64,000 nt of DNA from Acutalibacteraceae bacterium. Lineage in GTDB: Bacteria > Bacillota > Clostridia > Oscillospirales > Acutalibacteraceae. Below are positions 18,942-56,962 of the stretch, piece after piece (position 1 is the first letter of the stretch; each line of letters starts with the position of its first letter). The notes beneath the pieces are model-generated. The model was not told where the DNA came from. It made no database searches and saw only the letters and a list, made by a program, of their open reading frames with translations. The position numbers and the translations under genes were made by a program. The DNA is taken from contig JAZRJR010000073.1 of the NCBI GenBank assembly GCA_045645885.1, positions 9,824-73,823 on the forward strand, in the 5' to 3' direction.

Positions 18942-21900
18942 TTAACCGAAGATACCGAAAATCTTAGCGAAGAATTCCTTAATCTTCTTGATGATTCTCT
19001 GGAACCAGTTGAGGGTTTCTTCTGCCTCTTCTTCAGCTTCTTCGTGGTCTTCATCAGGACCTACAGTGTCATACCATACACCTGTCATCTGTTCCATAAC
19101 ACGTGCGATGCTACCATAGATACATGTTGAACCGTTTGCGATGTCGTTGAAGAGCTGCTTGAAGATTTCCTGAACAGTGATGATGTCGTTACGATAGAAC
19201 GCATCAACTGTTACTGCAAGACCGAGAGCCTGGAAGAGAGCTGCTACGATAATGTCGGGCATACCGTAAGATGCAGTTGTCTTGAAGAGCTGATCGATTG
19301 CATATCTTACAGACTGTTCTGAACCAGCCTTAAGATCGAATGCACCAACAATCCACTGTACAAGAGCTTCTCTGTTACCTGCATCACCGAACATATCAAG
19401 TAAGAATGTGAAGAGCCATGTAAGGGTGTTGCCCTTATCAGCCTGGATGTAGGTCTGAGTCTTCTTGTTGCCTTCAGCAATGTACTTGTCGTACTTGCCG
19501 TTTTCGTAATTCTTCACATAATCCTTAGGATCTGTGATAGCTGTCTTGAATGAACCAGCCTTTTCTGAACGAGCTGTTGCAACTTCCTTCTTACCTGTAC
19601 CTGTCTGAGCAAGTTCATAGAAGTCGATTTCAGGAATCTTGAAGTTGTACTTAGCGCCGAGGAGCTGGATGGGAATGTTGATGTTGTGGATAAGCTTAGC
19701 AACATCAAGACCTTCAAGAAGGTTACCAAGTCCGGGGATAATGCCTGAAACAGCATTGAGAATTCCGAATACGGGAGCTGCAAGGTTTCTTACGATGAGG
19801 TAGAAGCCTTCATTTGACAGGAAGTATCCAACGTTGGGAAGAACGCCGAGAAGTCTGTCAACGGGTTTAGCAAGGAGCCAATCTGCCCAGTTGCCGATCT
19901 TAGTAAGAACATAACCGAGGGTGTTTGCAGGATTTGACTTAACAGCATCTGCATACTGAGCCTGAGTCTTAACGTCCTTAGCTTCAAGACCGAATGCTTC
20001 AAGGAGAGGAATAATTGCGTAATCGTAACCGTTACCACCCTTGATATTAGCTACACATACGGGCATACCGTCGTCGCCCTTGATGATTGTACCGTTGTCG
20101 TTTCTGCTGGGAAGTACGCCGAGAGTCTTGCCTTCGCCGAGAAGGAGAAGTTCAAGTACGCAGTTAAGCGGGTTGAGGATTGATGCAAGGCCGTTTACAA
20201 AGCTTGTAACTGTGCCGTTTACACCCCAGTTGATGCCAGCTGCGCTTACGTCTGACCACTTCTTAGCAGCCTTAAGTCTCTTAGCGAATTCAGCGTTAGC
20301 ATTTGAATACTTAGCATATTCTGTTGCATAGCCCTGAACTGTAAGATCAAGACCGAGAGGTTTAACGTTACCCTTTTCGTCATAAACTACGAGGATTGCC
20401 TTGTCGCCTGTTGCAAGAGTTGAGATAGTACCAAGGATACCTTCAACGCTTTCACCGGCAAGGAGACCTGTGATTGTACCAACAAGGTTGGATACGAGAT
20501 CGTTGTTGAGCATACCGCCGAGGAGACCTGCGAGTGAGCCGCCGCCTACGCCTGCAGCCTTGAGAATGTCATTGATAAGGTTGTCAATGTTAGCTGCGAT
20601 TACGTCTGCGTTAGCTTCTGTAAGGAAGCCGTAGGTTCTGTAGTCGATACCCTGAAGAGTAATTGTTCTGTTCTGGATGGGAATGTATGAAACTTCGCCG
20701 CCGAGAAGAGTTGCAATTACGTCGAGGATCTTTGCGGGATCCTTGATGATGTCTTCGATGAGACCTTCGAAGTCGCCGAGGTCAAGACCGAGAGCACCCT
20801 TAAGTGCATTCCAGTTATCTTCTGTAAGGATTGTCTTAAGAAGAGCATAGAATGTGTATGCGTTGTCACCTGCAACGTTCTTATAACCTGTACCGTTATA
20901 GATGTCGTACTTAGTATCAAGAACTGAGCCCTTGAAGTCAATCTTGCCATCGCCGTTTGCATCTGCTGCTGCCATAGCTGCAAGCTCAGCAAAGTTGAGG
21001 TCAAGCTGGAGACCGAGAGGCTTGCCGTCAATTGCAATACCCTCAATAAGGTTACCGAGGAGATTTGCAAGAGCAGCACCGTCAATCTTGAGTGAAACAC
21101 CTGCGCTTACGCCGGGATGTTCCTGACCAAGGAATGTCTTGAGTACGGGATACTTGTCAGCATCTGCAGCACCGATGTTACCAAGGTCAATCTGGATAGC
21201 GATCGGGAAGATGGGATCTACTGCTGCGATGAGGTTATTTACGGGAGCGATGAGGTTTTCAACAAGAATACCTACGTTACCGTTAGCAATTGCATAGCAG
21301 AGGTTAGCAAGAATTCCGAGAACGCTGTTGATGGGCTGTTCAAGAATCTTATCAACCTGAGCGAAGAGCATGTCAAGGATAGGCTTGAGTGATGAGCCGT
21401 GGTTAGCAGCAACTGCTTCTTCATACTTAGCCTGAGTCATCGGTGTTGCACCGAGTGCTTCAAGAAGAGGAATGATAGCGTAGTTGTAGCCGTTACCGCC
21501 GCTTACCTTAACACCGTCAAGGATTGCGAGTGTATCACCTGTGAAGCCCTTTGTATCGAACTCAGCGTTAATCATACCGCCGTGGAGAAGGAGACCGAGG
21601 ATGCAATCAAGCGGGAGAAGCATATCACTGAGAAGTGCAATGAAGTCTGCCTTATCTGTGATGCCCCAAGCATATGCCTTAGCAACTCTTGTCTTTGTTC
21701 CGTCTTCGTTGGTCTTTTCTTCGCTGTGTGCCATCCATACTTCGTTCCATGTAATAGCACCATCTTTGTCCGTATCTTTAGCTTCTTCAATATAAGCTTT
21801 AAGCTTAGAACCGAACTTGGTGTTCTTGAATGCTGCGGGAGCAATGCTGAAGCTGTCACCGTTGTTCTTGAGATTTGAGAGCTGACCAACAAGGTCTTCA

Positions 21901-24900
21901 ATCATATTAAGAGTATCAACGGGAAGTCCTGCAAGAAGTTTAACTACTGCGCTTACAAGAGCATTTGCGATATCATCCTTCACGAAGAGCGGATATACGA
22001 TATCTGCAAGACCGCTTACCTTTGAACCATCTTCTGTCTTAACAAGGAGTTCAAGGAGCATCGGGATAAGTCCGTCAAGGCCTGCGAGTACATCGCCTAC
22101 CTGCTGGCTTACGCTTTCGTCCTTAATCTTATCCATTGCGGGAAGGTTATAAGGCTTGTATTCAACCATGTATTCGCTGAAGAGCATGAGGATGAGGTCG
22201 ATAAGCTCGCCATCCTTATCAGCAAGTGACTGGATGATGTTGTAAACCATATTGGGCTTGCCAGCTTCATCTTCAGCCTTGAGGCCGATAGCTTCGCAGA
22301 GGATGTTGAGGAAGTCGCTTGTAAGAACTGTTGAAAGAACATACATGATAGCGTTGCCGCTGTCTGTTGTCCATGTCTTAACGTTGTCGCCTTCTTGCTT
22401 CTTAACTGTAACAGCTGCGTTAGCAAGGTTAAGGAAGAAGTCTGCGGGAAGTGCATTTACAACTGCAATTACCTTGCCATCCTTATCCTTAATTTCGATA
22501 TTGGGAAGGAGACCGTTGATAAGGTCAATGAGAATCTTACCGTTGTCGCCTGCAATAGTGAAGATGTTTGTGATGTTGAGCTTCTTACCGTTCGGAAGTG
22601 TTACATTCACAAGGCTTTCGATAAGTGCATCAAGCTGATCCATTGTAATTACATTGTCAAGAGCATCAACAATGCTGAGTACGGGAGCAACGAGATTCTT
22701 GATTACAACTTCTACATCGTTGTTAGCGATGAAGTAGCTGAGGTTACCGACAACTGTGAGAATTGTTTCGAGCGGAGCCTTAGCAACAGCACCTACAAGG
22801 TCATCAAGGATGAAGTCAAGTACATTAGCGATTGCTTCGTTAGCAGTAGCTGCCTTCTTAGCTGCAGATACAACTGACTTGTTAGTGCCATCCTTACTTG
22901 TGAGTTCTTCAAGGCCGAGACCCTGGAAGAGGAGAGGAATAAGAGCAGTTTCGTAAGCGTTACCGCCTGCGAGACTTACGCTTGCCTTCTGTCCGTCATT
23001 TTCAAGTGTGAGTGTAAGATCGCCACCTGTGAGAAGGAATGCGAGAACAGGTTCGAGAGGCTTAAGGAGACTGAGAAGTGCGCCTACCCAAGCTTTCTTA
23101 CCCTTTACGCCTTCGAATACAGGCTTGTAAGTTACCTTAGTTGTAGTTGTACCGTCTTCGTTCTTGATTTCTTCAGTCTTGTCAACGTTAGCTGCTGCTA
23201 CATCTGCCCAGGTTACACCTACAGTTGCGTCAGAAGCTTTTGCCTTAGCCACATAAGCGATAAGGTCAGCGTTTTCTGTCTCAGCTGCGAATGCTACGGG
23301 TGAAAGGTCGATACCGATGATACCGCCGATTGTAGCAAGAAGTTCAGGATCAAGTCCCTTAAGGAGACCGATGAGAGCGCCTGTGATTGTGCCCATAAGA
23401 CTTTCTGTGAAGAGAAGGTCGTTAAGGAGATAATCAACCATACCTGCAAGAGTAGCATTATCTTCAATGCCTGCTGCAAGGTTAGCAAGGAATGTGCCCT
23501 CTTCAGCTGATTCACCAAGAAGGTCAATGATGATGGGAGCACCCTTAACAAGAACTGAGTCAAGGTTTTCAATAGCTGTTGATGCCTTGTCACCGTTTTC
23601 TACAGCGAGCTTTCCGAGATACTTGAAGATGTAATCATATTCTGTTACTTTGTTGTCACCTGTGAGAACGAGAACGAGAGTTGTGAGAACACCCTTGATG
23701 TTTTCATCACTTGCAAGAGCATTGTTGATGAGTTCAATAACAGCATCGGGAAGAGCAGCGCCGTCGAGGAGACCGCCTACAAGGTTCTTTATTGCCTTAC
23801 AGTTTTCATCTGTAAGAATTGTGTCAAGGAGCGTAATGAGTGCATTACCTGCATCACCGGTGATGTTAACAAGATCAGCAGTTGAAGCGTTCTTAACTGT
23901 ACCGATGTTGTAAACCTGCTTAGTACCGGTTGTGAGAATCTTGCCGTCTGTGTCTCTCTTAGCCATCTTAGCTGCAAGTTCGAGCCAGTTGAGGTCAAGC
24001 TTGATGCCAAGCTTGCTTCCGCCGATTTCGATACCTGCAAGGAGATCGCCGAGAAGATCTGCGAGGTCTGCGCCTGAAACGTTCACTGTGATACCTGCAG
24101 GTACACCTTCGTGTGACTTAGCGAGGTATGTTGTGAGAATGTTTTCAGCTGCAAGGTCGATTCTGATTGCAAGAGGAATTGCATCGTCTACTTCGTCAAT
24201 AAGAGTATTAACAGGAGCGAGAAGGTTTTCTGCAATCGTGTTGATACCGTCTGAACCGATGAAGTAGAAGAGGTTAGCAAGTCTTGAAAGGAGCTCGTTA
24301 AGCGGTGTCTTGAGGATTTCGTTAACAACGCCGATGAGTGCTTCAAGAACATACTGAAGTGATGAGCCTACTTCGATTGAGTATGCGTCATATTCCTTCT
24401 GAGACTTAAGGTTTGTTGCACCGAGAGCCTCAAGAAGCGGGATAATAGCGTAGTTGTAGCCTGCGCCACCCTGAATCTTGATTTCGTTGCCGTTATTGGT
24501 TTCGTCGTCAAGAGCTACAAGGTCGCCTTCTCTGAGGAGAAGCTGGAATACTACATCGAGAGGTCTGAGAAGGTCTACAAAGATGGGGATGAGATCGTTG
24601 AGAGATGTAACCTTCCAATCGAAGCCGTTAAGCTTTGTCTTCTGGTTGCCGTCTTCGCCGTTTACTGCCTTGAGTTCATATGTTTCGCCGTCTACCGTAA
24701 TTTCGGTTTCACCCTTAGCACGGTAAACAGTGATTGTCTGAGCCTCTGTAGCAGCTACATAGCCGTCTGTACCTTCTTCGCCTACTGCTTCCTTAGCAGG
24801 AATTGTGTAGGTGAATTCATACTGGGTATAAGCATCAAGGATTTCTGTCCATGTGCTACCAGCATCAAGGAAGTCCTTAACCTTTGAATCAGCAACAAGT

Positions 24901-51900: not shown

Positions 51901-54900
51901 TCACCGTTTTCGTCAAGCTTGTCAACTTCTGATACTGTTGTTGAAACAACAAACTGACCTTCACGTACCTGGCCTTCACCGTTGCCGGCATCAACATAGT
52001 ATACCACGCCGTCTACTATGATCTGTGTGCTTGTTGTTGTAGCAGGAATCTTTTCACCTGTTGTTTCGTCAGTAGCATAGATAAGTTCTTTTGTACCAAC
52101 AAGAAGGTCTACAAGGAATTCGATAAGTGCATTACTGAATACAAATTCAGAAAGAATTTCATCGAGACCTAAGGCTGTGCCTGCATTTGCAGCTGCCTTT
52201 GCTTTTGCGATTACAGTTTCAGCACCAAGAGTCTTAAGAAGATCTACGTTTAAAATTGTGTCTTCAAGTGCAACAAGAAGTGTTGTTGCAAGTGAGCTGA
52301 TAAGCTTATCTACATTTGCAACAGCAAGGTCTGCCTTTGCAATAAGATCTGCGTCTGTGTATGTCTTGTTTGCAAGCTCGGTAGCACTCACCTCGCTGTT
52401 TGCTTCACGAAGTGTTTCTTCAAGATATTTACCAATCTGGAATGTTGACTTGAGGTTACCGGCTAAATCTTTTGTAACATAAGACTTCCAACTGTCACCT
52501 TCCCAATAACCGAATCTCTGAGCGTCATCAGCTACGTCATAGTAGTCTCTGAAATTCATTGTGTAGTCATTAAGAAGACAAATAAGAATAGCTACAATTG
52601 TGTCAGCCTGACCGTCAACAATACCTGCAATCATATCGAAGGTGTCGCCGAGAAGACCGCCGAGAAGCGGCTCAAGAACATAAAGAGTACCGTCGTCCAT
52701 AAGCCATCTGAGAAGTGTAAGAAGAACGTCACCGGAGTCAGTGTCGATATGATAGTTTGTCTTGGGTGAAAGCGGCTGAATTGTAGGAAGGGTTGTTCTT
52801 ACGACCTTACCGCAGGCCATAAGTCGGTTAGTCGGCAGGATAAGAGGACACGAACCCGTGTTTCCATCCCATTCGAGCCAGTCCAGGAAGCCGTCGCCGG
52901 CAAGACCGTATAACGTTCCTGTAAGCAAGCCGGTCTGAACATATTTTTCGTTATGTTTTATGTATTCGATGACGTTACCGTCTTCATCCGTCTTTGCCAG
53001 ATATTTACTCTTGGTTGAATCGGTTGGAGATTCACTTGTTACTTTTGCACCAAGAAGCATATTAAGAAGACCTGCGCTGCCCTGCTTTGTTACATCAGGT
53101 GTAAGACCAAGATCTCCGATAAGATTTCTGAGAGCAAGATCCCAAAGCTGAATATCTGTAAGTGAAGCACTAACAAGGCTGAGTATAACTTTAAGATTCA
53201 TATCCGTAATCTTGGGAAGAATCTGATCATATTCAAGAGCAGCAACAAGATTGGGAAGAAGCTCAAGAATTGTTTCAACAGGCTTGTTGAAAAGTCTCAT
53301 ATTGATGAAGTTGATAATGGGTTCAAGAAGCATCTGCCAAAGCTCAACACCATAGCCGTCTTCAGCTACGATACCTGCGCACTTGCCGTCAAGAGCATGG
53401 ATATCTGTATCACACGCTGCAGAAACTTCACCACCGGAATAATATCCGTAACCGTCTTTGTTGTTGGGATCGGCAAGAGCCTGAATACCAAGAAGACGAT
53501 AAAGCGGCATAAATACATTGTCATAAAGCGACTGGCCGGTTGAGTCAATTGTAATATCAAAGTCCATAAGTGCAACTTCGACCTTCTTAGCATTACCTGT
53601 TACAAGTGAGGCAAGAACAGGAGCAAGACCTGATGCTGCAGCGGCCATTGCATGATAAAGGTCATCAGCATTTTCTGTATGCCATGCTCTGTCCTGATCA
53701 AAGTATACGGGCTCGCCGTTTTCATAATAGATAGGCTCTGTACCCTTCCATACACCGTCAGGAATACCTTGATATGTTGCGCCGTCTCTGGGGTTGGTCC
53801 AATTATCGTTCCAATATGATCTGAGTTCCTTACCACTACCATAAGACGAACTATCATGAGGTGCTGTCTGAAGAGCATAAAGAACTTCAGTATAGTCATA
53901 GCGTGAACCCATAAGGTCACCATTGAACATCTTATACCAAATTACATCCGTGTCATCACAGATGTTACCAGCAGATGTACCATTCTTTGATTTGCCCCAG
54001 TTTGCATAGAACATATGAGGCATGGTAGGAAGCGCTCTACGGAGAGTTTTGGGAAGATCCTGGTAGTATTTCGGAAGAATAACCGCTACGCCACCTGCAA
54101 GGCTATAAACAGCAGGACCTACCGCACCTTCAAGAACTGTGAAAATAGTATTAGGAAGTAAACCGCCATAGAGGATGTTGGCGATAAGACTGATAAGGAA
54201 TTCGCGAAGATTCTTTACATCGTCACCCTTCTTGAAGGTTTCCTTTGCATGCTTTACACCATCTTCATCAGTGAACGCAGGAATTTCATAATCTCTCTTC
54301 CACTGTCCAAGCATATTAGTCTTGACAGGAACAATTTCTAATTTGGTTGTGGGGTGTATCTCAAGATCTGCCTCATCAAGATAGAACTCATCTGTTCCGT
54401 TCTTGTATGTATAAGCAAACTTACCGTAAGCATCAGTCTTCTGCTTCATTGTAAGATTTTTGAGAAGTATACCAAGGTCCTCTGAAACGAGAATTCTGTC
54501 TAGATCTTCTACAGCTAAGTCCATAAGGTCAGCAATTTCACCTCTGGAAATGGAGCTGTTCTGTGCAAGCTCAACCTCATTAACCAGTTCCATGATGTCT
54601 TTATAATTAAGCTTACCTACACAAGTAGCCCACATATATGCATTATAAGCAGGTGCCTTGCCTTTGTGGAGAATATACTGAAGCATTGTTTCATCAAGAA
54701 CATTATAGGGGTCTCCGCCATATTCTCCCTTGTGTGCAGCCTGAGGAGCCTGTGCTGTATTCTCATAAGCGAGATTCTTCAGGTTATTGAAATATGTCTT
54801 GAAAGAATTTGCGTCACTATATGCTCTGGTAGCACTTTCGTAGGTTTCAAGGAATTCATCTTCTGTCATATCACCCTTCTTTGAGTTGGGTTCATACGCA

Positions 54901-56813
54901 GGAGCTTCAGCGAGGAAGGTTCCTAAACCGCTGGGAGTGATAGCTGCAACACTCTTATAAGCTGAAATAATTGCTTCGTAGTTATAGTATGTAGCAGTAT
55001 TCTTGCCTTCTGCATAATACTTAAGAACGAGATTGTAAGAATCGTTAGCCTTAAGAAGAAGGTCCGCTTTGATATCATTTACATACTCTGTATAAGGCGC
55101 AATACCTTCTTCACCGTAAATTTCTTCAAAAATTGAAGCAAGACCGGCATTAGTTGAAAGCTCATAAGCCTGTCTGTAGAGTGTTGCAAATTCAGCAACC
55201 TGTGCCTTAGCATTGTTGAAGGTAAGACCTGCGATTACAACAGTATCCATAAATGCATCCATCTTGTCTTTTACAACAACATGCTCAGCACCTTCAATAT
55301 TAAACGAAACGTCACCTACTTTTTCAGCAAGCTTTGTGTAGGCTTCTTCATTGATATTGTTGCCTGCGTCTGTCTTTGTGTTCTTAATATCTTCATATGT
55401 AGCGTATCCGAGAACATATGTATTGATATCTGAAACAAGTGCAAGTGTACCATCATTGCCATTGGGGCCATAGAGCCAGAGAGCAGCATCTTCTTCAGTC
55501 GCATCAACCCATGTCTGTGTTGCTTCGTCATAAGTCTGCCACTTTTCTGTTGCAATATCAAACTTGGGAGCAAAATCAACTTTATCAACAGCTGCTTTAA
55601 GAGCATCTGCGTACATAAGAGCATAAGCCTTAGAAATTTCAATTCTAAGACGAGCCATTTTTGATTCAACTGTAGCAGAGTCTGAACCAATGTAGTCTGT
55701 ACCCTTAATGATGTTCATCAACTTTTTGGCAGGTGTAGCATACGGACTTGCATTGAGTTCATTCATAGCAGCAACATAGCTGTTGTAATGCGCAAGAAGA
55801 CCGGGAGCATCCAGATCAGCTGTTTTAACTGCAAGGAGTGCGTCAAACTTAGCAATAATACTTGATGCAAGCTGTTGCGCCTTTACTTCCGCACCGGCGT
55901 TGTTGTAGAATGCCTCTGTTTCGCCGTAAGTCTTATTTACAGTCTTTGCGATATAATGATCCCATACCTGTGCAGGGGTATATCCTGACTGTGATAAGAT
56001 TACAACATCAGTAAATTCATTGAAAAGCTTAGCAAAAGCGTCAAGCTGAATATCACCAAGCGCTCCGCCGCCTTCAACTATTGCAAACCAAGCGATGAAG
56101 TTTGAAGGATTAACACTCTGCTCAATTGCAGTCTTAATCGCACCAACAGTTGTTACCATGCTGGTGGGGTCTTCAAGTATATCTGTTTCATACTTGGTCT
56201 TGTCATTGATTTTATACTGCTTACTTCCGGCAGCTGTTTCACCGGTTACAATTGTAAGGGTAGCTGTGGAGTATGTACGGTTTTCGTCCATATCTTCCCA
56301 CTTGTTCCATGCAAGCAGATCAAAGCCGCAACCAATATCAAGTGTAATCTTGGTTGAAGCTGAATAATAATCGCCTTCCGGTGTCCCAAACTTAAAGTAG
56401 TCAAGAATGTCCTTGTAGTCTTTCGCAGGAATTCCAGATGAAGTACTACGATTATCCGCAACCGACTTAATACTTTCAACTATGTTCCACAAGCTGCCAA
56501 AGTTTTCCTTACCTACATTACTGAGTGCATAATCTGCAAACGCTTTGGCAACAGCCTGCCAACCACTTGTTGCAGTATCCATCTCAACAACCCAGTTCTT
56601 GCCTGAACCATCAGGAACTCGGGTCTTGTCAGGATCCTTTTCTTTGTTTGCGTTTACAATAGCTTCTTTAAGTCCTGCATAATGCGTTTCAATGGCGTCA
56701 AACACGATGTCAGTAGTAAGATCTGCACCGAGAACGCTGAAGCATACAGAACAGCTGGATACTATCATAATAATAGCCAGCAAGCAACTTAACGCTTTTT
56801 TACCAACTTTCAT
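18942..56813 (-). CDS. Giant secreted modular protein of about 12,620 aa and unknown family. Layout: signal peptide, a unique N-terminal region of about 940 aa, 19 tandem modules, an acidic stretch, then an amphipathic C-terminal helix.
   Basis: The ORF track shows one open frame across 18942-56852 (12,636 codons). AAGGAGG lies inside codons 9-11 of that ORF, 8 nt before the ATG at 56813, so the start is set there (MKVGKKALSCLLAIIMIVSSCSVCFSVLGA/DL, a signal peptide). A dedicated promoter and terminator flank it. The protein is acidic and Cys-poor. I found no LPXTG, SLH, dockerin, RTX, Rhs/YD or NRPS/PKS core motifs when reading it. Confidence 0.9.
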   Translation of the reverse strand: MKVGKKALSCLLAIIMIVSSCSVCFSVLGADLTTDIVFDAIETHYAGLKEAIVNANKEKDPDKTRVPDGSGKNWVVEMDTATSGWQAVAKAFADYALSNVGKENFGSLWNIVESIKSVADNRSTSSGIPAKDYKDILDYFKFGTPEGDYYSASTKITLDIGCGFDLLAWNKWEDMDENRTYSTATLTIVTGETAAGSKQYKINDKTKYETDILEDPTSMVTTVGAIKTAIEQSVNPSNFIAWFAIVEGGGALGDIQLDAFAKLFNEFTDVVILSQSGYTPAQVWDHYIAKTVNKTYGETEAFYNNAGAEVKAQQLASSIIAKFDALLAVKTADLDAPGLLAHYNSYVAAMNELNASPYATPAKKLMNIIKGTDYIGSDSATVESKMARLRIEISKAYALMYADALKAAVDKVDFAPKFDIATEKWQTYDEATQTWVDATEEDAALWLYGPNGNDGTLALVSDINTYVLGYATYEDIKNTKTDAGNNINEEAYTKLAEKVGDVSFNIEGAEHVVVKDKMDAFMDTVVIAGLTFNNAKAQVAEFATLYRQAYELSTNAGLASIFEEIYGEEGIAPYTEYVNDIKADLLLKANDSYNLVLKYYAEGKNTATYYNYEAIISAYKSVAAITPSGLGTFLAEAPAYEPNSKKGDMTEDEFLETYESATRAYSDANSFKTYFNNLKNLAYENTAQAPQAAHKGEYGGDPYNVLDETMLQYILHKGKAPAYNAYMWATCVGKLNYKDIMELVNEVELAQNSSISRGEIADLMDLAVEDLDRILVSEDLGILLKNLTMKQKTDAYGKFAYTYKNGTDEFYLDEADLEIHPTTKLEIVPVKTNMLGQWKRDYEIPAFTDEDGVKHAKETFKKGDDVKNLREFLISLIANILYGGLLPNTIFTVLEGAVGPAVYSLAGGVAVILPKYYQDLPKTLRRALPTMPHMFYANWGKSKNGTSAGNICDDTDVIWYKMFNGDLMGSRYDYTEVLYALQTAPHDSSSYGSGKELRSYWNDNWTNPRDGATYQGIPDGVWKGTEPIYYENGEPVYFDQDRAWHTENADDLYHAMAAAASGLAPVLASLVTGNAKKVEVALMDFDITIDSTGQSLYDNVFMPLYRLLGIQALADPNNKDGYGYYSGGEVSAACDTDIHALDGKCAGIVAEDGYGVELWQMLLEPIINFINMRLFNKPVETILELLPNLVAALEYDQILPKITDMNLKVILSLVSASLTDIQLWDLALRNLIGDLGLTPDVTKQGSAGLLNMLLGAKVTSESPTDSTKSKYLAKTDEDGNVIEYIKHNEKYVQTGLLTGTLYGLAGDGFLDWLEWDGNTGSCPLILPTNRLMACGKVVRTTLPTIQPLSPKTNYHIDTDSGDVLLTLLRWLMDDGTLYVLEPLLGGLLGDTFDMIAGIVDGQADTIVAILICLLNDYTMNFRDYYDVADDAQRFGYWEGDSWKSYVTKDLAGNLKSTFQIGKYLEETLREANSEVSATELANKTYTDADLIAKADLAVANVDKLISSLATTLLVALEDTILNVDLLKTLGAETVIAKAKAAANAGTALGLDEILSEFVFSNALIEFLVDLLVGTKELIYATDETTGEKIPATTTSTQIIVDGVVYYVDAGNGEGQVREGQFVVSTTVSEVDKLDENGDVVLDNEGNPVKETEYKLNYDQGLLGGLLGDPNGIVNKIANTLADIGIDLTPAGFYQAFTTSSSVSSSGNTQLAQWLERQHYIHRTGSISGYNANAYSDTQVYEYIRDEMTWADIGYEAGFEWFVEAEDFSERINNFVEYLCDLLSPLNPILSFLLSGQDILLLDELELQGNNGYSRSIVAILEALGLNSACMSQNQFDNYVYNNDKTKDTNVDVDALTAKGGKKFAQTYNSPLRPLLDAIRELLVGDETKGIKGFVDSPLTVLFEKIPNLAYALYIYNDPDDDKKRSNFMIAVENLIAPVTKLLDIVDPVLSRLITLDLNALIESFLDLENLLNNVLANIGEDNSGFNVQMLDFAKIAAESSDITKEITYRAVGTDDSGAVNANKKWTSFNGSAGKFLITLVRTVLNRQIATVLGNVILNATNANDENEELEYRQRVHNIVNGVINNLTGEAADAEGGMKVDILTGIIIDIFSDYNPDEGNLYYYDFINNLDNKLTEAIQDQAMTDYGIVHSGYANNENAIVQNDGTFAVIDKENNNEILFTEEDVNETIENLDYVVREALPEILSILTDNGIIGGDLVNGIKGDDGLWGLVKGLAMDYALKDDSFTWIANLIVGLFGAGGSTSTSRTLQQALKAAGFDMTFDAFIYNLDENGKPDKSKPSPLYEYFTYGFYKENGKIVPGASGDYDKYYLDMDFNDQKDDINGDGVITVADEVELTFVQIYNNHSYVLYEFDKNGELVKNQDGTPKKAAVQIQTTSDEELKDENGEYITAYKYEYDITDDAGEVTETKTVWLEEAGLKAYVVGEGANAVTYTLRDATEDKYVTVLDENGEPKLDASGNEVKEIVYATEVYATAYPQKTNDAGKYEYTYTNAEGEVVTYYGDYQQLKVLKSDQKDAQGKDVYYTLTPVYSETLGDRKWAWGIDEAEYILDADGKPVRKDEFTAKKVAMVNTLWSVLEPFAIVFSTLFAGDALSLFGHTLNIEGGFGYDDYLLPLLRAFGLDSIIAQLGDKLNTLETKDAEGQKIEHLMTKEEYLSRVYVDGKMSPAGVGYTVKNIVNYVFYFVEILCKYPVETLANALPTLAYFLYADGITTLVTNILIPVTTLTNRLTDIINLDINNIASGLIDALATDDWENFQNALNEFVKYDENGDQIVSDNVYSLTDSLLALIANLEFDLSGVLGGNDPYEGMYGIVLFLDKDKELEAKAKNKMAADLTKENAVANKDQIESLKADARTLRATAVKNFLKSIAALGDPVSEHEDEANDYIKRKYADYVYVSGTGTVYVSKAEVLMFLLDFIFTNTTLKEVIGSLLGYDLTDDNSATEAELLDEIITNVFKNPNALVDLIVALLTGDTRGTIKPVTLIEITSENHFEFYEDAGYDTHEEVLDHNKNLGAGEEKVTEISRVKTSATIDNLDALVGKILNLSLLKDMLAKEDDPDTAEDESGAFNKLFGITTDDTITLQLIVDKVFETYLYDDKGLNSIMDMLIGLLGGEDSAQIVNIVLTVLKGSGYDLTPYSFYMNIDNLRETIVKAVEDKSITFDPAAETLTDEQEKALKALNWSDVVKANSKYQYVVKDADGKVTATYYADEKGLTTLDHDNDKNTAEIAVIADMVQKQTDREVDKQVTDEATGETTTKKVTEYKYTYSVKNAAGELVDTELWLEEAGKTEWIATPDNPETEENEEVKHLVEAVMENVKPAKQKTAVKINATWGLNTRDGFVDLLWNCIKPLAPIFAALFAEGSLVIYDKITINGAAGYEGFILPLIKALGIPALRANKNADGTWSDNLGTPIVNEGNYFLGGGATEATLVDYTAYKAAVYNDNGSIDYDGAKIMLTTLTDAIFALVDSLCARPVNTLLTIIPYLAHFVESDGIDAILNNLIVPVTTITDMLESIYDIDLMGIVKDLLRGLIKDMNDKAGETSDSTDPADQSTVGAAAAAVALNMIEENEGGQSGLEAAVASLTEPDEALDLSGGAGSAYTFKQIIVELLEGVSINGTDLKSIIDPEFIFLNLASTAWRAGSTKKVITIAADRRSGSYWPCTATEYTVDRESVLINLLNDIVFTDGIRDLIGGLLKFDFSKAAMTTLTEEDSNYLLTVLLYGVFEDPEALERLLIDLLSWYEIEYEDPRVKKTDAEDAFNEIDSNNELVYGENGNGLDKEQMEKLPKDFDSLIGAIVPAVLGMLPEGALGDLKLQGANLEEMVHNLLADLMMDKTVTNELGKEEIKYGFATQLVELLVNLLGGNATVSMIVGLLPTIIEGVDVELDDFKAVNDAFAEYFVTDDGKQLDTWADAYEYFKSIKKYEAPKEPAADYVAPAHEADTLNLYAVDGNGKPIPVYALDENGAKIPVYANGTTKTDAYGTWYVNGGTAAADEEAIADTYVVETDEKGNIVYEYQYELKLKNTDSFGIEDYDDVLALVSQILAPFAPVLRFLLTEADLVALDGIHITGGDGYDRFIIPLFEMLGVAKYMNDPQSAYKGDYEFIDKDEFAALDNKAFTAQIVEGYIDALISMIVNTPIQTIVDLVPELVFFIYSDGLAQAVEQLVAPLLTLVDMVNDITAKEVAIEGRDDKLVALDIVGLITDLINDNLMKPNNIAEVTGFYGDNGLITRLLTANGLETLLQGLLDNANAWIYAYEYTIPKEMVEGATEDELVTVYFNKDNLDGATHTPTNGNGKDKQFTLKAVPEKNKTPMTFGLDKDNSEGEIIGIFKWILEKTCKIEKVDTIREYGADNNDQIWGVKASRADTLVQIISETLLGGEMLTSLLSSFGVEIKEGEILDTILKALTGENRYQLFVVLLTYFNEYDVETMLMDYLSFEKVEYAYEEISDRLTKRKLRRAIKKLDGSILTVIPDLIPMLEEVDFIKMLLEKIGGYKEGQSLKDLVHELLMAYAFNDQTMNELMGLLVGLLGGEDLAGTLNTVLPLVDTIVGIDVTPYGFMEATSSEAIEQYLAPAINAAASEFVLDENGDVALDDDGLEVQKGVEAVTWTDIADYYRVYVYSHNTVTAETKYEYTYTDVEGENQYYYADEKLEPNAEDGKIIITQGDNKYELTANETKTFYTYTTDYMYSKTDLGETTEVDGKTWYGYEQATDADGNLLWIDEATGEPAKKTEKKTVDEVETEVTVRATRVNALTGADAFDWKIDKAASRGGYNAAKNAFVEILAGIVTPLEGILNFLLRGDSLYILPNEDTKNSGVLEFHGNNGYENVIMPLFQALAVDQVGGTIVSAEAYEAGRGEAITLTAITDGIFAIIEALTDGPLEFIFTLLPSLSYFISCNGPEVVLNNLLSPVFALLNLADPIVGDLLDDLIGSAISGIFADYMPTNVPFVEKTNYKAPIYKTEKKTVDGVETEVKVPARTDSETITFRDETYYISAGTDAGEIIEGKYVVTTEKVDGVTVPDFEEYNAYALTDLLKICGEYGENLVKIINNLVGPLLLGEDATEDEKAAFKLLDDTFFSDYAAHAITINEQKVNARFYYFYTDAEGNWYKIEAKDFNDSMGTVVETHYVVDWFKVDIADSAVFLLDNVLSESLLEAIAKLANIDMDDESNILGVILSNLADNKFTGLVIADIITALFENYTITYNELYGEYITPDHSHLDVLDEEDKDKAEKVPGQLDKVINEALPTLAPILSKLLAPKDGKEPTILNEIFDDYAKIAKDDKVADLYEIAMYLLDDLVWSDELVNTLAALIINLIGTTDIVGTIIGYFGLTGIKLDPQSYLATVKKAYGENDTAVMTLAAIIGEATTWADVVKNDTTPLYAYEYVDGKNEDNTDKKVTVYLADADAETYELTKTEGEGEAAKEVTYDVTLTPVTKKVEGEEVRVTKAEFNKTEDGKNVADVEWGVNDATDKKAAFIKALAVIVEPLFPVLQLVLQGKILTLVGHGKNEYTPVNMVEYYKDGTHLEITDDSRTGNEIGNGYIELVGVNGYEELLVPVLDALGGIAAFGRYDAEDNADGIMTAEQFCAINNAYDMLSYIVNVVFAFVNNLVANPVTYLATYLPSLLYFIGSDGVYNAVQSVLQLANGLIDVVKPLIGEEGIKFSDTLGLPLDLKMLKLDDSTVPGKVQKVENGKYAYIVKGDATKTEIYLDEAGLTKNGEVEIEAVMIDGTIEVDGLCSMINGLIGKDLISKDMLLKAAGYLGDYQTIETVRTTASPALYDTELDAYVNAAGQIIAKKDGDIWVDADGNAVAKPAADGHITTIVGNTQYTLTGLLQFALADGLVGGLLDTASMEGILKTIIDNVMGPDATKNVSAILIKLLNEYVITYEAIEEPAKALSPDAPDYAKYGVTKADVDLALSNLQALLPEVLALLGVGSLDKLVADNLYTDKVINGIICLLVGLLGGMDEKTWSTITEIIGYVNDIVNLENDIDISPAAYADSKTLGEFIKAVDVKRDILDAEGNVTGEERIPVADLTWADVAAFYTKYEYRYMVEEAKAAQGEKGEEGYVAPVEAKYVTVWFADANLDGEDHTPTSGDYAGKTFKLEKVETVYYGYEYTIPATGTEGTDDYVAAKTETLKSTDDKLTEYKVGEETYALTAKGEVERVHNTKVESDFTWDIENKKELNDKADILVDVVTDLLKPLDGVLSLLLAGGTYNFATTNTYGDSLGAFEEINIMGGSGYNYAIIPLLEALNVPADSIKTQSEYEATIKSKGTLGYILETILHTVNDNLDTPLDFVLGLFANLAYTISKDGVTTIVSNLIAPLSEVIEAVEGVLPVAIKVDLIKLIDGGSVAEILLGDDVAKKNAKVGLTLDLDCATLEKLIAKVLTKFVAGFDIAFDFSDIAAKSAKLDANGAIIYNNSKVDTKWDKITPEDAVWGKNIEGDPAATIVTLLAMIITADNIDALLQMLKVDLTTLPLEVYKLLEKVIDAPDVVIGAVIKLLANNYDVSGVIKAMVFYFLDELEYDYTGVKGGALNGGHGAVNSAISKFDKMLNNLIPKLLKLLGNDLETPVELIKDIYVGLGEDAAKADIKAVVDYLLNDLVFNDKMMNYLLAAIVNLLGGIDEKTFTTIVDIVKEVLGIDISPAGVAEKSYSEIGAIAAFIEKHIAEGKTIADLTWAEIAKAHAWYEYRYLVEEAKGEEGDDDYVAAKYVTTHFADANLNDTEHTPTKGDYAGKTFTLEAVKDKDGKHVTKVILEEKWNIADKDDFLKVIYEIVAVVEPLLAFLFMGEDITILVDTFGLKGSNGYENALVPLAKALNIDIPDTIGSFAEATDMLKAVVDGIFGLVTKIEKAPISTILEVLANASYFIANNGIETVINNLIAPVTGLLSIFEKKTTVTNTDGSTTEKTEGITMADINALLKSLIKMDLNDITGIAGADGSKLVSMINGLLPKVEITGADGTVRIAQALPGDFFVKMSQYAIVYEKLLGVDETGKQPVTKWSVDKADALMYLLSTVLSADFIALIGDLANAEEGTVLGDLIYGLAGDQNKVINIISMLLNNYTLVYKKYAQNDITKIDVEPKDPLTDQNLGQAIEAIDGLVPAIIGLFVPGADSLKGLVENLVAGADLGNLLMNLLVPLLSGLDIDAILGYVKEFSNLNVKLDPSAWTANANSEIAKFILAADENADGKVTWAEVEAHYTQYEYSYTAEGAEKATSVYKPTAEGTYTETVGEGDKKKTYDLAPVYEYEYTYEVVNGEGKDAKKETKTIILDKNDYTTYDVDGKADTAEVEVKLSKTIQKSKMVSEYDWNIENFDGLKKFAVDLLKPLDVVFELLLAGADIVVVPDNKKNEQPYPAQITVRGGDGYNFAIIPLLEAIGATDLKTQREYEDYSKSEEIGSHLEYILDVLFGEVEEILASPVSELMSRLANLFYFIGNDSINDLARNLLAPVNTLIAEVDPIFPLAIQIDVGQVGIEGAEIIKLFLGKEHTGISSGISVNVRGVDLAALLNNLLGGIEINGTKLGLSLDLNWIELAAKMAKQGAQRVDAEGTPVVENGNPVYEVVKNESAMFYGNYEFAADDINAEKYYNIEGSAVDGFVTLLQVLLTQDNTKAIKDLVDGLLEDGELKNILMDILSDPDAVEKAVGVVVLLLTGEKALTEDDYPLDFIYKFLGKLDFAYANTDLNYGMNNVQSAINKFDAIIAREAVGIITMIGATAEADSFLGKMTAAMNKIEEGTENAEGRKATLSDLVAWLLGEFAFTADNYKALMEMLNTLLADLITSELAGIISTILPIDLMPYEFAAATGNAKLIAYVAKAYAEDATEEAKKAVTWADVRAAYATETKDGDKSTWTYDKYESFTWDVADQTTFVDSLLDLLKPLNPILDFLFAGKNLKFEIEGVELWGANGYKNAIVPLLNALGAQQLGVNLPETAANSTTAIGYIVDALLGCQVEEEVDGVLTDVYKKGIVDAICEAPLTSILTIVGNLSYFLANGNLDELIQNLIAPVMNILKLAESLLSREELDVLIEGLAKIELYEGYALNISNILNIAGEDGSGLVALINGLLGGIRAYHKTAYELNPDKTVKTYSKATMTNSGEYVEIKGADGKGTGKYYKLLDKSTIVEYTEADVKADTTGAQFHKVEKEDGTVVYWKVLQVISVLPDNFFKQFAQYVVEDTKYDNVAVTAVDAVVDSWTINTADALMYVLTTVLDQNFFETILKKIGLDLSQGIGATVAAMAEKENDLVDVLLMLFNDYKVVYSKINQPAITKVDLTDTYADFSPEGHTLTKDEVETAIAVLDPLVNTVLGLIVPGADSLGGLVDGLIADADLANLIMNALVPVLATLDIDSILAYVNELTNIKLTTLSPELWADAKFGSELKNFLAAAEDLNEDGEISWAEVEAHYTQYEYTYTIPATADAAAKTETVYKPAGTAQITIGEGDKAVIYDLAPVYGSYEYTYEVTVGEGEEAKPETKKVVLAEAGLAEITIGEETFTVTSSKGIQKSKMVSEFDWKITGLNDTLVKFVCDLLQPLDIVLQVLLRGEPIIAVEDKSAARADIRIMGGHGYNYAIIPLLEAFGATDLKTQAEYNAYSKAEGSSIKYILEALIAEVDEILATPVDQLLSRLANLFYFIGSDGINTIAANLLAPVNTLIAEVDDLFPLAIRIDLAADEILGLYLGKEHEGVPEGITVNVSGSALTKFINDALVGIKVNGEALGLSLDLDWIELAAKMAGTERIPTKQVYTLGTIADENIADLVNISGDSADTLIALLDTILSEKNCEAIKALVMGLLPEDFMKENKDIADLIEKALSSENTIKQVLGAVVLILTGNGNLSSDVYPFAYIYKFLGKLDFNYKEAELSDAITKFDSMIAREAVGVITMLGATAEADSFLGKMTAAMNKIEEGTDDAEGRKATLTDLVNWLLGEFAFTADNFTALMEMLTNLLAGAITADLAGTIAQLLPIDLMPVAFAKATKNDKLVAYVAKAIKEGATDAEKAAVTWADVRAAYATEEFGEWTYNYGEFTWGVNDQNSFINALLDLLKPLNPILDFLFAGNNLSFNINGVALWGADGYNNAIVQLLNGLGAKQLDVTVETIGEGEHTTDALRKLVNALLGTKGKNGIVDAICTAPLTSILKIVGNLSYFIANGNLDSLIQNLIAPVLAILELLESVITRDQLDALLAGLLNVKLPGGKALTISNIINIAGDSGEGLVAIINDLLGGLRVYEKDKDGKIKEYKVEQLVKNHNYHEVIVTDEDGNVVYKTTKDKDGNVTFVLDKDGQRVPEKVYWRVLHVINVLPENFFEQFAKYVVENSEYEDEAVTTVGADVDSWTINTGDALMYILSTVLDYDFFETILKKVGLDLSQGIGETVLSMADKENELVDVIIMLLNDYTVRYSKLEQPTITKADLTEAYAGFSPDAHQLTNEDVTTAINVLDPLVNTVIGLIADGKTLGGLVNGLIADADLANLIMNALVPVLAGLDKNESLDLDAILAYVEQLTNIKLTTIAPTLWTDMLSSDSKVEKFLGDAKTWTAILEKYTKYEYTYTIPAVGTEGAEGYVAEQTITVFDKADATEIIVGEGENTKTYTLAPVYDYEYTYTDKDGKEQKFYSTKNDLTKADVDNNKDTPDVAVALIGNETHRSKMASDFNWGITDLDDLIPVVCDLLKPLDIVFQVLLSGNSIVALPDTDDVAPANAQISIKGGYGYNYAIIPLLEAFGATDLKTQAEYDAYVAETGSSLKYVLEVLIGEVNEILATPLNELLSRLANLFYFIGSDGINTIADNLLAPVNTLISEVDDLFPLAIVIDVAADEILTTYLGKAHPGIDAGIHVNVSGTALAELLSGLLEGIEVNGDKLGIKLNLNFIELAAKMAKKGEALKDKDGNDVTDAAGNKIYSVESTGTSQNYTVGSVGEGSSLNHLKNSTAADLVNIAGDPADTLIALLDTILTVDNCKAIKNLVEGLLKNANLPTEVKGIIDNVLSTNVTIKKVLGTVVLILTGEGELSSLPAYIYKYLGDLNYDYRTDELSIAVDKFDKIIDREAAAIIKLIGSPAEGTAEADLTTFNKIANAINKDKGLASLVDWLLKEYVFTEANFNSLMTMLTDLLAGFVTADLAGTIAQIIPVDLMPYEFAKASGNVALQNYVAKAYAENATEADKKAVTWAQVSDANKTAFAWGVADRETFVETLLAIVSPLNSVLDFLFAGENLTLAIGDVSIWGSNGYNNAIVQLLNGLGAEQLGVNVERISEGEHTTDALRKLVNALLGTEGKKGVVDAICEAPLTSILTIVGNLSYFIANNNIDVLIQNLVAPVMAILELLESVITRDEIDALLEGLVNVKLPGNRPLTLSNIIGIAGDKGEGLVAIINDLIGGIRVYEKNENGDIIKFTKEQVDADKENQYWPVEIENEDGTKSTVYWKVLHVIDFLPANFFEQFAKYVVEDSTFADETKTDIGDDVTDWNINCGEALMYILTTVLDYNFFETLLKKVGLDLSKGIGEAIIGLADKENELVDVILMLFTEYKVVYKKLTQADLDENVVAPYESFKTDEGALNNANTNEAVLVLDSIVKLVVPMLAGKDLGGLINGLIADADLVNLVMNALVPLLAGLDKNENLDLDAILSYVRELTNIDLTTINPTLWTAEGVLVADSKVKDFLDAGSTWTEILDAYTQYEFTYTIPAKEAVGEEGTDGYVAATEAQTITVYRAKGETEITVDGETYELKAVNGEDGNQKTKLNGFDWKVTSLNDLIPIFVDLLRPLDVVFQLLLREGDLVALDDETNNGNEIKIQGGAGYNYAIIPLLEALGATNLKSQKEYDAYSIEVGSSLQYVLEALIGVVNEILKTPLNELLSRLANLFYFIGSDGINTIAENLLAPVNTLIDEVDDAIPLAIRIDLAAENILTTYLAKSHEGVPAGITVNVSGADLADLLGDLLAGIEIGGSKLGIKLDLNWLELAAKMAKRDTDGKILTTGTKQVYNIGTVKNASTADLVNITGDAGNALITLLDTILTDENCKAIKNLVGGLLDGAALPDAVIELINNALASDENIKGVLTTLVLVLTGDNKVTEYDYIFKYLGKLAVENGDKASTAIENLDSVLVKGAPIIIDLLGESAEEGTFLANLAAGIEDNATLAGMVDYLLNDLLFTESLMGTITGALIGLLKGLDPELLATIGGIIGIDLSPVAFAAETENADLIAYVAKAKASDATVGVTWADVAAANVDKTEEIKNEDGTTTTKVTYKPVFEGVKGKKAWVGALLSLLKPLEPVLAFLLTGGDLTLTLENDGQKASVSLAGGNAYETALIPLLFQGLGLEELTSKDGTNKSVVSAAKKAATANEAIANVLDFILDDLVGAVAKAPLETILTVVGNLSYFIANNDVEVVIKNLVAPVLSIVDALDNVITMDQLDALIESLVNVTLPNGKKLNITNIFTIAGDNGKILIDLINGLLPNIEIKDKDGKVIAVVNALPADFFLNLANAAVTVKKQEGDNVKTWTTDSGNAIMYVLSTVLTSDFLNILCEAIGLKAEDEAGKPNMVYNIIQSLADKDGELIDLILMLFSEYMVEYKPYNLPAMDKIKDESVSQQVGDVLAGLDGLIPMLLELLVKTEDGSKVSGLADIVYPLFVKDDIANALVSAVVKLLAGLPVDTLNMIEDLVGQLSNLKNNGDSFSIAPAAFKNTKFGSKLKAYIEEAKDTDKDGAITWNEVWMAHSEEKTNEDGTKTRVAKAYAWGITDKADFIALLSDMLLPLDCILGLLLHGGMINAEFDTKGFTGDTLAILDGVKVSGGNGYNYAIIPLLEALGATPMTQAKYEEAVAANHGSSLKPILDMLFAQVDKILEQPINSVLGILANLCYAIANGNVGILVENLIAPVNNLIAAVDPIFPIAIQIDLGNIGAADADKYPVLKTFLGQEHPGVSAGVSLKIDGAALANLLGNLIEGIAIDGKPLGLQLDLNFAELAAMAAADANGDGKIDFKGSVLDTKYDIYNGTGYKNVAGDNAYTFYALLKTILTEDNWNALKGALGLDLGDFEGLIEDIIKDPAKILDVIATLLGGEVSYIPIQNRTITLQGIDYRTYGFLTEANADVIAANIDNLINDILKAAGVGGGSLAGLLGGMLNNDLVSNLVGTITGLLAGESVEGILGTISTLATGDKAILVVYDEKGNVKPLGLDLTVQGYATEYAKYSNANAEFAKRLKAAKKWSDVSAAGINWGVNGTVTSFVNGLASILNPLNCVLELLLLGEGKTLGVLPSRNDNGTIIKGDDGMPVCVANIKGGNGYDYAIIPLLEAFGLEAKDVKTQAQYADAVKSNPANTLGYVLTKIGNWADWLLAKPVDRLLGVLPNVGYFLSNEGFYLIVRNLAAPVFGILNAVSGIIPGLGNLLEGLDVAKLIHNINIPIQLLGAKYNFKIPEIDFYELAQTGTGKKEVATARSEKAGSFKTAITDPKDYVKNYENGKYDKYIAEGNKKTQTYIQADKGNTLTWLFTFLLDMFGDAGNREALVQWIVGAFDLKAGSEQSVRYAIDQLFKTTASYGMPDIIVAALFQALGLAVTVDAFYRNDIITVQEIFKQLFNDIANGSTCIYGSIARVMEQMTGVWYDTVGPDEDHEEAEEEAEETLNWFQRIIKKIKEFFAKIFGIFG
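19950..53560 (-). repeat. Array of 19 tandem coding modules (1.47-2.44 kb each), each anchored by the motif [GN]G.GY..[AF][IL][IV]PL[LF].A[LF]G.
   Basis: Anchor motif copies, read on the reverse strand, are centred near 53505 (degenerate), 51370, 48930, 46625, 44545, 42290, 40125, 38055, 36360, 34680, 33060, 31090, 29580, 27685, 26140, 24445, 22945, 21476 and 20014. Examples: IMGGHGYNYAIIPLLEAFGA, LWGANGYKNAIVPLLNALGA, ITGGDGYDRFIIPLFEMLGV. Each is followed about 40-60 aa later by L.NL.YFI...G....I.NL[IL]APV. Confidence 0.85.
21000..38900 (-). repeat. A/B super-repeat zone: two module subtypes alternate with a period of about 3.2-3.6 kb, with long nucleotide-identical stretches.
   Basis: A-type anchors (GG.GYNYAIIPLLEA.GATDLKTQ.EY) are at 38055, 34680, 31090, 27685, 24445 and 21476. 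B-type anchors (LWG.NGY.NAIV.LLN.LGA.QL and relatives) are at 36360, 33060, 29580, 26140 and 22945. 30085-30149 is identical to 33577-33641 (65 nt), and 24241-24272 is identical to 27481-27512. Confidence 0.8.
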
Positions 56814-56933
56814 AAAATTTTCCTCCTTATATGAAAGAATTTTATATAACATTAATAGATTTCCCCATGATAAACACCCTTACACCCTGAAAAAGGGTGC
56901 AAAATGCCCATAGAGACACCTATAACTGTACGT

Positions 56934-56962
56934 AGTATACCATTTTTGGACAAGTATTTCAA
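56934..56962 (-). promoter_or_regulatory. Strong sigma-A-type promoter TTGAAA, 17-nt spacer, (TGg)TATACT, dedicated to the giant gene.
   Basis: The reverse complement reads TTGAAATACTTGTCCAAAAATGGTATACT. It predicts a 5' UTR of about 110 nt containing a CACCCT-TTTTC-AGGGTG hairpin and the AAGGAGG RBS. Confidence 0.55.

Follow-up and report, generated by a model that had tools for sequence, protein, structure and literature searches.

The DNA considered here is a stretch of 64,000 nucleotides from an Acutalibacteraceae bacterium (contig JAZRJR010000073.1 of assembly GCA_045645885.1), which we call the window throughout. One open reading frame (ORF) of 37.9 kb on its minus strand raises the question of whether so long a frame is a genuine gene and, if it is, where its product of 12,623 amino acids (aa), the giant protein, would act and how. 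An earlier note, made from the sequence alone, had described a secreted protein without a recognisable domain family, most likely a giant cell-surface fibre, sheath or adhesin of a new type. We found that the protein is built from a module without a counterpart in Pfam, NCBIfam or the PDB, that this module recurs in hundreds of unannotated proteins, and that the C-terminal tail of the giant protein is interchangeable within this family with known membrane and wall anchors. We think it probable that the protein is exported, tethered to the membrane by its C-terminus and extended as a surface stalk, possibly Ca2+-binding, with a distal head and with a protein carrying Flg_new repeats as its partner at the same surface. 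The Acutalibacteraceae and Oscillospiraceae are common in the human and ruminant gut, are mostly uncultured, and have cell surfaces that are essentially unknown; giant proteins of this family would be the likeliest molecules for their attachment to particles, mucus or partners. One such protein takes up 37.9 kb here, which is probably over 1% of the genome.

The reading frame as a gene

The frame (18942..56852, minus strand) is 12,636 codons long, ends in its only stop, contains no N and occupies 59% of the window. At the base composition of the window, the chance of an open frame of this length is about 10^-335. As start codon, the ATG at 56813 is the best choice, being the first to be preceded by a ribosome-binding site (RBS). 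The length and continuity of the frame, its promoter and its RBS are as the earlier note had described them (Table 1), and the product is as acidic and as poor in cysteine as it had said (1,372,571 Da; Leu 11.7%, Ala 10%, D+E 15.4%, Cys 0.32%). The terminator hairpin also lies where it had been placed; only its U-tract is short (TTTTG). The promoter and terminator calls are consensus matches and are putative, and an Rfam scan of the window, the hairpin in the 5' untranslated region (UTR) included, gave 0 family matches.

Such a frame might be a product of metagenome assembly, through a chimera or a wrongly expanded array of repeats, and a genuine gene might still be dead and unexpressed. In line with an artefact, the proteins of the window have no exact record in a large public collection, there is no independent assembly of the exact sequence, the protein, at 12,623 aa, exceeds every other family member seen (the next longest of the 155 examined has 7,691 aa), and the giant gene is split in some related metagenome contigs (L078). 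However, the DNA repeats within the frame are about 65–90% identical and reach at most some 80–90% over stretches of 300 nt or less, which makes their collapse or expansion during assembly unlikely. When we compared the five super-repeats of the array, synonymous divergence (dS) was 0.8–2.0 and the ratio of nonsynonymous to synonymous divergence (dN/dS) was 0.32–0.39, around 0.35, so that the duplications are old and every copy is under purifying selection. There are 0 internal stops across the 37.9 kb, the expression signals (promoter, RBS and terminator-like hairpin) are intact, and the order of the modules is colinear with that of orthologues at both ends. The G+C content (GC) and its value at third codon positions (GC3) match those of the flanking genes. 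A scan with the C-terminal 443 aa, taking one genome per species, found relatives in about 65 metagenome-assembled genomes (MAGs); their identity is 41–61% in nearly all and 33% in two outliers. About 55 of them keep the frame open across all of the 10 kb retrieved upstream, i.e., over at least 3,750 aa, and a related cluster of 6,546–6,572 aa has been assembled independently many times. Judged by this evidence, all of it drawn from sequence, the giant frame is a real gene, and the earlier gene call is sound on the strength of the open frame, dN/dS, GC3 and the orthologues in MAGs. An artefact or a dead gene seems very improbable.

Modules, family and predicted fold

The protein consists of a signal peptide, a non-repetitive head, an array of 18 full modules with a terminal half-module, and a C-terminal domain that ends in an acidic linker and a short tail (Table 1). 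The full modules and the half-module together give 19 copies of a core domain. The head, given by the earlier note as a unique N-terminal region of 940 aa, has to be extended to about residue 1030. Self-comparison found no internal repeats in it, searches of Pfam and the PDB gave no match, and its identity to orthologues is 35–40% (P0156–P0158) or 29% (P0159). The later modules (aa 6045–11664) alternate between two types, A and B, and the super-repeats of ~1,130 aa that they form share 50–61% of their residues between neighbouring units and 37% in the oldest pair. Seventeen family proteins match the C-terminal domain. The core motif of the modules is GGxGYxxAIxPLLEALG, and the only invariant residues across the 18 modules, and across 32 when those of relatives are added, are G70, Y74 and P131, within this motif. 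No polar residue is conserved across the 18 to 32 modules aligned, which argues for structural, non-enzymatic modules rather than catalytic ones.

Word-indexed searches return few relatives of the giant protein. When 1.84 billion representatives were searched exhaustively with a profile, 648 clusters (50% identity) matched at E <= 1e-3, 377 of them at E <= 1e-30. Many of the matched proteins have 2,000–7,700 aa and are hit by the profile in as many as 17 stretches, and all the members that we looked up are named only "hypothetical protein". The 155 family proteins contain 923 module matches; since 465 of these cover only the N-terminal ~200 positions of the module, that core is the real conserved unit. 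Complete members have a signal peptide, a head of 900–1,900 aa, 9–13 core domains and a C-terminal element. The window protein, with its 19, is the longest of the 155 (the next has 7,691 aa), and it has every element of the family plan: signal peptide, non-repetitive head, array ending in a half-module, and C-terminal anchor element. The core signature of the family, F.W...F..L..LL.PL..VL.FLL.G ... GGxGYxxAIxPLLEALG ... P...L..L.NL.YFI, occurs in the window in 19 copies. The homologue search that the earlier note had proposed shows the gene to be conserved across the Acutalibacteraceae, with a syntenic upstream partner. Nearly all the genomes with relatives are MAGs from the human and ruminant gut, under the labels Acutalibacteraceae, Oscillospiraceae or "Clostridia bacterium". 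Plasmid and phage collections searched with the module by tblastn gave no match, and there is thus no sign of an origin in mobile elements. We found no description of this giant-module family in the literature. The giant proteins of the "Hodor" megaplasmids were considered as relatives and set aside, as they carry S-layer/MBG domains and differ.

The smallest complete member, P0006 (983 aa), has a signal peptide, two core domains, a transmembrane helix and a long basic tail. In its locus (L080, 1544-7924) the gene overlaps the stop of a gene for a TetR-family regulator, and a 926-aa protein with ABC_tran and FtsX domains (MacB-like) comes next. This is a different operon context for the same domain, possibly a regulated one.

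The claim that no part of the giant protein belongs to a recognisable family is borne out by every database that we searched. Pfam, run over the whole protein and permissively over each module, gave nothing: the sub-threshold matches are scattered and none recurs across modules. The NCBIfam scan of the giant protein was empty, and sequence and profile searches of the PDB with the super-repeat, the head, the module profile and the C-terminal domain found no match. Nine small family members scanned against Pfam and NCBIfam have no Pfam domain. The specific absences listed in the earlier note also hold. No SLH or CWB2 wall-binding domain appears in the Pfam and NCBIfam scans of the giant protein; cohesin and Dockerin_1 have no Pfam match in it, and only isolated EF-hand-like loops were seen. 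There are no Pfam domains of the Ig-like (BIg, Cadherin-like) or GGxGxD nonapeptide kinds, and the protein has an N-terminal signal peptide, unlike RTX/Bap/SiiE. Pfam and NCBIfam are negative in the giant protein for YD repeats (Rhs) and for the condensation, adenylation, KS and AT domains of nonribosomal peptide and polyketide synthases (NRPS/PKS). The C-terminus, ...EETLNWFQRIIKKIKEFFAKIFGIFG, has no LPXTG-like motif followed by a hydrophobic segment and a basic tail. Profile searches for an already characterised repeat family to which the modules might belong, an outcome that would have removed the claim of novelty, found none.

Following another proposal of the earlier note, we predicted the structure of one module (aa 9002–9530) with AlphaFold2 (AF2). 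The mean predicted local distance difference test (pLDDT) was 64.6 with 18 aligned modules and 70.9 with 32 sequences, in the latter case with residues 30–350 at 80–90. The model is a helical array with a beta-rich insert at positions 223–333 and an ill-defined helical C-terminal third. Foldseek searches with the two models found no significant match in the PDB (none at E <= 0.001; best E 0.17, template-modelling [TM] score <0.1), and the better model had none in BFVD (best E 6.5e-3, TM score 0.10). The absence of a known fold thus covers solved structures, from the PDB, and the viral predicted folds of BFVD. A domain that Pfam, NCBIfam and the PDB all lack is found in at least 648 protein clusters, and a name for it and for the tail would give an annotation to hundreds of giant proteins that are now "hypothetical".

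Export, probable anchoring and proposed arrangement at the surface

The giant protein begins, as had been claimed, with a classical signal peptide that is conserved among orthologues. It is nearly invariant in orthologues whose mature parts are only 29–40% identical, and this difference suggests a specialised export signal, in concept comparable to YSIRK. A signal peptide is present in 108 of the 155 family proteins, and a family-wide pattern, K-K-x-L-S-x-x-L-A-x-x-M, recurs in it. The signal peptide of the giant protein contains a lipobox-like motif, VSSC; a lipoprotein was considered and rejected, as Cys21 is found in only three of five orthologues.

The location of the protein is best read from the C-terminal elements. 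An amphipathic helix rich in F and K closes 94 of the 155 family proteins. At least 10 of the 155 end instead in a transmembrane helix with a basic (KKKK) tail, and members of about 910 aa (e.g., P0200) end in VPTGD, a hydrophobic stretch and RKKKHA, a sortase-type signal, so that in at least that branch the domain would be displayed on the surface. Because the tail is interchangeable with known membrane and wall anchors, it is likely to be an anchor as well, with the domain displayed on the cell surface. This is our main argument, and it points to C-terminal anchoring of the family proteins at the cell surface. The helical hydrophobic moment of the tail, 0.76, is the highest of any 18-aa window in the giant protein. 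The cell-surface location proposed in the earlier note is thereby supported by newly found evidence, the interchangeable anchors; its fibre, sheath or adhesin role is one that we can still only infer.

The same tail, EESLNWFQ[KR][IL]IKAIKDFFA[KR][IL]FGKK, also closes unrelated secreted proteins of 1,450–2,030 aa in the same lineages, which have a beta-rich domain and no transmembrane segment before the tail. Its presence on such proteins suggests a portable element that acts outside the membrane. The combination of an acidic linker with a ~22-aa F/K tail is absent from Pfam and NCBIfam, and we regard it as a candidate lineage-specific anchoring or sorting element and as a testable candidate for a new anchoring signal in monoderm bacteria. 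The unrelated tail-bearing class was seen in L068, L070, L071, L073, L074, L076 and L077, with an ORF that ends near 10081 (4856 in L076). A bolder reading, which we put forward tentatively and hold to be possible rather than probable, is that the family combines a core fold without any solved relative with an unrecognised, Oscillospirales-specific surface-anchoring or sorting signal. Just as tentatively, the tail may then serve several giant secreted classes: the giant protein, its Flg_new partner in a Cys-flanked form, and the unrelated proteins of 1.5–2 kaa. If this reading is true, the fold and the signal together would amount to a novel mode of cell-surface construction in gut Clostridia that are abundant but uncultured.

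In the tethered arrangement that we favour, the protein would be exported by Sec and lose its signal peptide, so that the whole chain would lie outside the cytoplasmic membrane. Its last 22 residues would form an amphipathic aromatic and basic helix in the outer leaflet and tether the C-terminus, in a role equivalent to that of the transmembrane helix with basic tail or of the LPXTG-type signal in other members. The 19 helical core domains of ~200 aa, 18 of them with a variable helical/beta extension, would form a long chain through and beyond the cell wall. Given a C-terminal tether and an extended array, the head of ~1,000 aa is proposed to be held at the far tip, where it may contact substrate, host material or other cells. 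EF-hand-type Ca2+ loops may stiffen the chain at some of the module junctions. The upstream Flg_new/Cys-rich protein of ~2,300 aa, which has an amphipathic C-terminus of its own, would be a conserved partner at the same surface.

The Ca2+-binding part of this proposal comes from short loops. Shuffled sequences would give 0.95 copies of the motif DxDxDG and 1.2 of DxDGx; the giant protein has 6 and 15. Three loops fit the 12-residue EF-hand pattern (DxDxDGxIxxxE) exactly and three partly, and canonical DxNxDGxIxxxE loops are located at module junctions. The Pfam EF-hand models stay below threshold (EF-hand_5 at 21.5 bits, with a cut-off of 25.9). Together with the very acidic composition, the loops suggest that the protein binds Ca2+, possibly stiffening the chain.

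Several observations weigh against the tethered stalk. The EF-hand loops are not kept at the equivalent junctions of P0001–P0004, and for this reason Ca2+ binding stays a hint. With a mean pLDDT of 70.9 the AF2 model is of no more than fair quality, it is poor in its C-terminal third, and the extended shape is an assumption. Nothing points to a ligand for the head. The C-terminal domain contains a hydrophobic helix (aa 12521–12539) of borderline Kyte–Doolittle (KD) hydropathy, 2.08, that may act as a stop-transfer segment in this group of orthologues, which would place the tail inside the cell; as a feature of the family, a stop-transfer segment was rejected, being too weakly hydrophobic in distant branches. 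Finally, the tail could serve in self-association, or be what an unknown sorting machine recognises, instead of binding lipid.

The last point leads to a protein that is released and assembles itself into an extracellular sheath or matrix, or is sorted by an unknown dedicated system, with the tail as an oligomerisation or recognition element rather than a lipid anchor. The hydrophobic pattern of the tail is indeed heptad-like, its sequence (ESLNWFQ..IKxIKxFFxKIF) is far better conserved than a lipid-binding helix needs, it is common to unrelated secreted proteins of the same genomes, as sorting signals are, and the upstream partner carries a related, Cys-flanked version. However, 22 aa are short for a stable coiled coil, and the richness in Phe/Trp and Lys resembles that of in-plane membrane anchors. 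Other family members have bona fide membrane or wall anchors instead, and no conserved candidate sorting enzyme was found to adjoin the giant gene. We judge release or dedicated sorting to be improbable, slightly more so than the other alternative that concerns the role of the protein, an envelope scaffold.

Such a scaffold would lie within or along the wall instead of reaching outwards as an adhesin, and would serve envelope integrity, cell size or osmotic tolerance, with a head that has no ligand-binding role. A role of this kind has been proposed for staphylococcal Ebh, and the plan of the giant protein matches that of Ebh/Embp (PMC7587433). The gene is vertically inherited, keeps a conserved chromosomal position in related genomes and is conserved across the bacterial family, which fits a housekeeping-type envelope role, and Pfam recognises no binding domain. 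Yet the number of modules varies strongly by species (from 9 to 19 core domains), and the giant C-terminal region evolves faster than the neighbouring genes (61% against 70–80% identity). Both features are more typical of exposed surface proteins, and the conserved, distinct head suggests a specific distal function. A scaffold appears unlikely to us, and the tethered surface stalk remains the reading that we prefer.

Table 1. Positions in the window of the giant gene, the parts of its product, its putative expression signals and the adjoining partner gene.
Feature	Residues (aa)	Position	Strand	Remarks
Coding sequence of the giant protein		18942..56813	-	12,623 aa + stop; 1.37 MDa; pI 4.3
Promoter TTGAAA-17-TATACT		56934..56962	-	sigma-70-type, extended -10 TG; 10/12 positions match; consensus match, putative
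Hairpin in ~120-nt 5' UTR		56878..56904	-	11 pairs; between promoter and RBS
Shine-Dalgarno AAGGAGG		56822..56828	-	8 nt upstream of ATG
Signal peptide MKVGKKALSCLLAIIMIVSSCSVCFSVLGA	1-30	56724..56813	-	predicted cleavage after VLGA; KD 2.54
N-terminal head	31-1029	53727..56723	-	non-repetitive; conserved in orthologues
Array of 18 full modules	1030-12138	20400..53726	-	each ~450-590 aa plus linkers; iterated hidden Markov model on the protein itself
Five A/B super-repeats	6045-11664	21822..38681	-	~1,000-1,190 aa; youngest part of the array
EF-hand/dockerin-like loop DINGDGVITVAD		49764..49799	-	
Canonical EF-hand loop DENADGKVTWAE		35202..35237	-	at module junction
Canonical EF-hand loop DLNEDGEISWAE		31602..31637	-	at module junction
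Canonical EF-hand loop DTDKDGAITWNE		21741..21776	-	at module junction
Terminal half-module	12181-12385	19659..20273	-	core domain only; also in P0001-P0005
Conserved C-terminal domain	12386-12601	19011..19658	-	52-81% identity in alignment; acidic linker DEDHEEAEEEAEE at end
C-terminal amphipathic helix NWFQRIIKKIKEFFAKIFGIFG	12602-12623	18945..19010	-	net charge +4; candidate membrane anchor
Intrinsic-terminator-like hairpin 3' of stop		18877..18904	-	12 pairs, 8 G-C, then TTTTG; putative
Upstream partner gene, Flg_new + CxxC-rich repeats		57210..64000	-	>2,262 aa; cut by window end; Pfam Flg_new 6.5e-14

Genomic neighbourhood and comparison with known proteins

The giant gene and its Flg_new partner are a conserved pair in which both genes have promoter and terminator signals of their own. 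An orthologous partner lies directly upstream of the giant gene in L078 (2389-9405; 2,338 aa, 37% identity) and in L079 (3-6275). The partner in the window ends in CGCACHRDNIWGAIFRFFHKIIKMLTGEFKCC, a Cys-flanked amphipathic segment, and the end pattern C.C.CHR...W..[IL]FRFFH......TG...CC is conserved in the syntenic orthologues. Cysteines flanking a segment of this kind, next to an anchor helix, make metal binding or lipidation possible.

The downstream genes are of ordinary metabolism and transport and are common to the six closest genomes only (L001, L002, L018, L038, L046 and L047). The order giant gene, NIR_SIR, binding protein, FecCD and ABC is found in both L001 and L002, at 70–80% protein identity, which places the source of the window in an uncultured member of the Acutalibacteraceae. 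This cluster (15175-18798) encodes a small sulfite/nitrite-reductase-like 4Fe-4S protein and then a FecCD-type ABC importer, with 50–80% aa identity in the six closest genomes, and has a promoter-like site of its own at 18857-18830. Its place beside the giant gene is probably plain synteny and not a functional link, and a conserved downstream partner gene was rejected on the same grounds. Further away, at 7219-15132, lies a cluster for an N-acetylglucosamine (GlcNAc) 2-epimerase, a DHDPS-family lyase (N-acetylneuraminate-lyase-like), a class II aldolase, a GH30 protein and a GH2 beta-galactosidase. It looks like a locus for the use of host glycans and sialic acid, fitting a mucus- or glycan-associated lifestyle. 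A 408-aa ORF at 726-1952 on the minus strand has no Pfam match.

How does the giant protein compare with systems already described? The E. coli DD-carboxypeptidases PBP5 and PBP6 are exported, lose their signal peptide and stay attached to the cytoplasmic membrane, on its outer face, through a short, basic amphipathic helix at the C-terminus. By analogy, they would match the geometry proposed here. They differ from the giant protein in having no sequence relationship with it, and its tail, rich in Phe and preceded by an acidic linker, bears a conserved signature and stands on megadalton proteins. From LPXTG proteins the giant protein differs by lacking an LPXTG-like motif, a clear C-terminal transmembrane segment and a basic tail; the family members of ~910 aa share with them a sortase-type sorting signal. 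Giant1–5 of Apilactobacillus kunkeei are lineage-specific extracellular proteins of 3,000–8,000 aa from a host-associated member of the Bacillota, studied by structure prediction as here (PMC12863079). They belong to a Lactobacillaceae lineage and showed no homology in any of our searches, and the likeness is one of category only.

The closest parallel in general plan is Ebh/Embp. These are ~1-MDa proteins of Gram-positive bacteria. They begin with an export signal and a region free of repeats, continue with dozens of repeated helical bundles that are thought to make up a rod, and are anchored at the C-terminus in the membrane and not by sortase (PMC7587433). Embp has 10,203 aa, a YSIRK signal, helical F/FG repeats that form a rod and a C-terminal transmembrane region (PMC7587433); with 12,623 aa, the giant protein is longer still and does belong, as the earlier note had it, to the size class of the largest bacterial surface proteins. 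The note's further statement that the repeat unit is unrelated to those of known giants also stands. There is no sequence or profile relationship with Ebh/Embp: Pfam finds neither FIVAR nor GA nor DUF1542 in the giant protein (in the window, DUF1542 has only a sub-threshold match, E 0.0028, in the upstream partner gene), and the signal peptide MKVGKKALSCLLAIIMIVSSCSVCFSVLGA has no YSIRK-G/S motif. The modules have ~500 aa and a beta insert, whereas the units of Ebh/Embp are three-helix units of 125–170 aa, and repeat structures of Ebh/Embp are not among the PDB matches that Foldseek listed for the module. Where Ebh/Embp have a predicted transmembrane segment at the C-terminus, the giant protein has no clear terminal one; it has the borderline helix at aa 12521–12539 and the amphipathic helix, its candidate anchor.

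Since the giant protein lacks the distinguishing features of Ebh/Embp, LPXTG proteins, RTX/Bap, SLH proteins, scaffoldins, Rhs and NRPS/PKS, we place it in a new, unnamed domain family within a known category of role. The "new type" of the earlier note is thus right for the module and not for the gene alone, because the gene has hundreds of unannotated relatives in a large family (648 clusters), and giant, C-terminally anchored proteins are a known kind. What is new is the domain, and perhaps the anchor; the general kind of protein is the one already known from Ebh/Embp.

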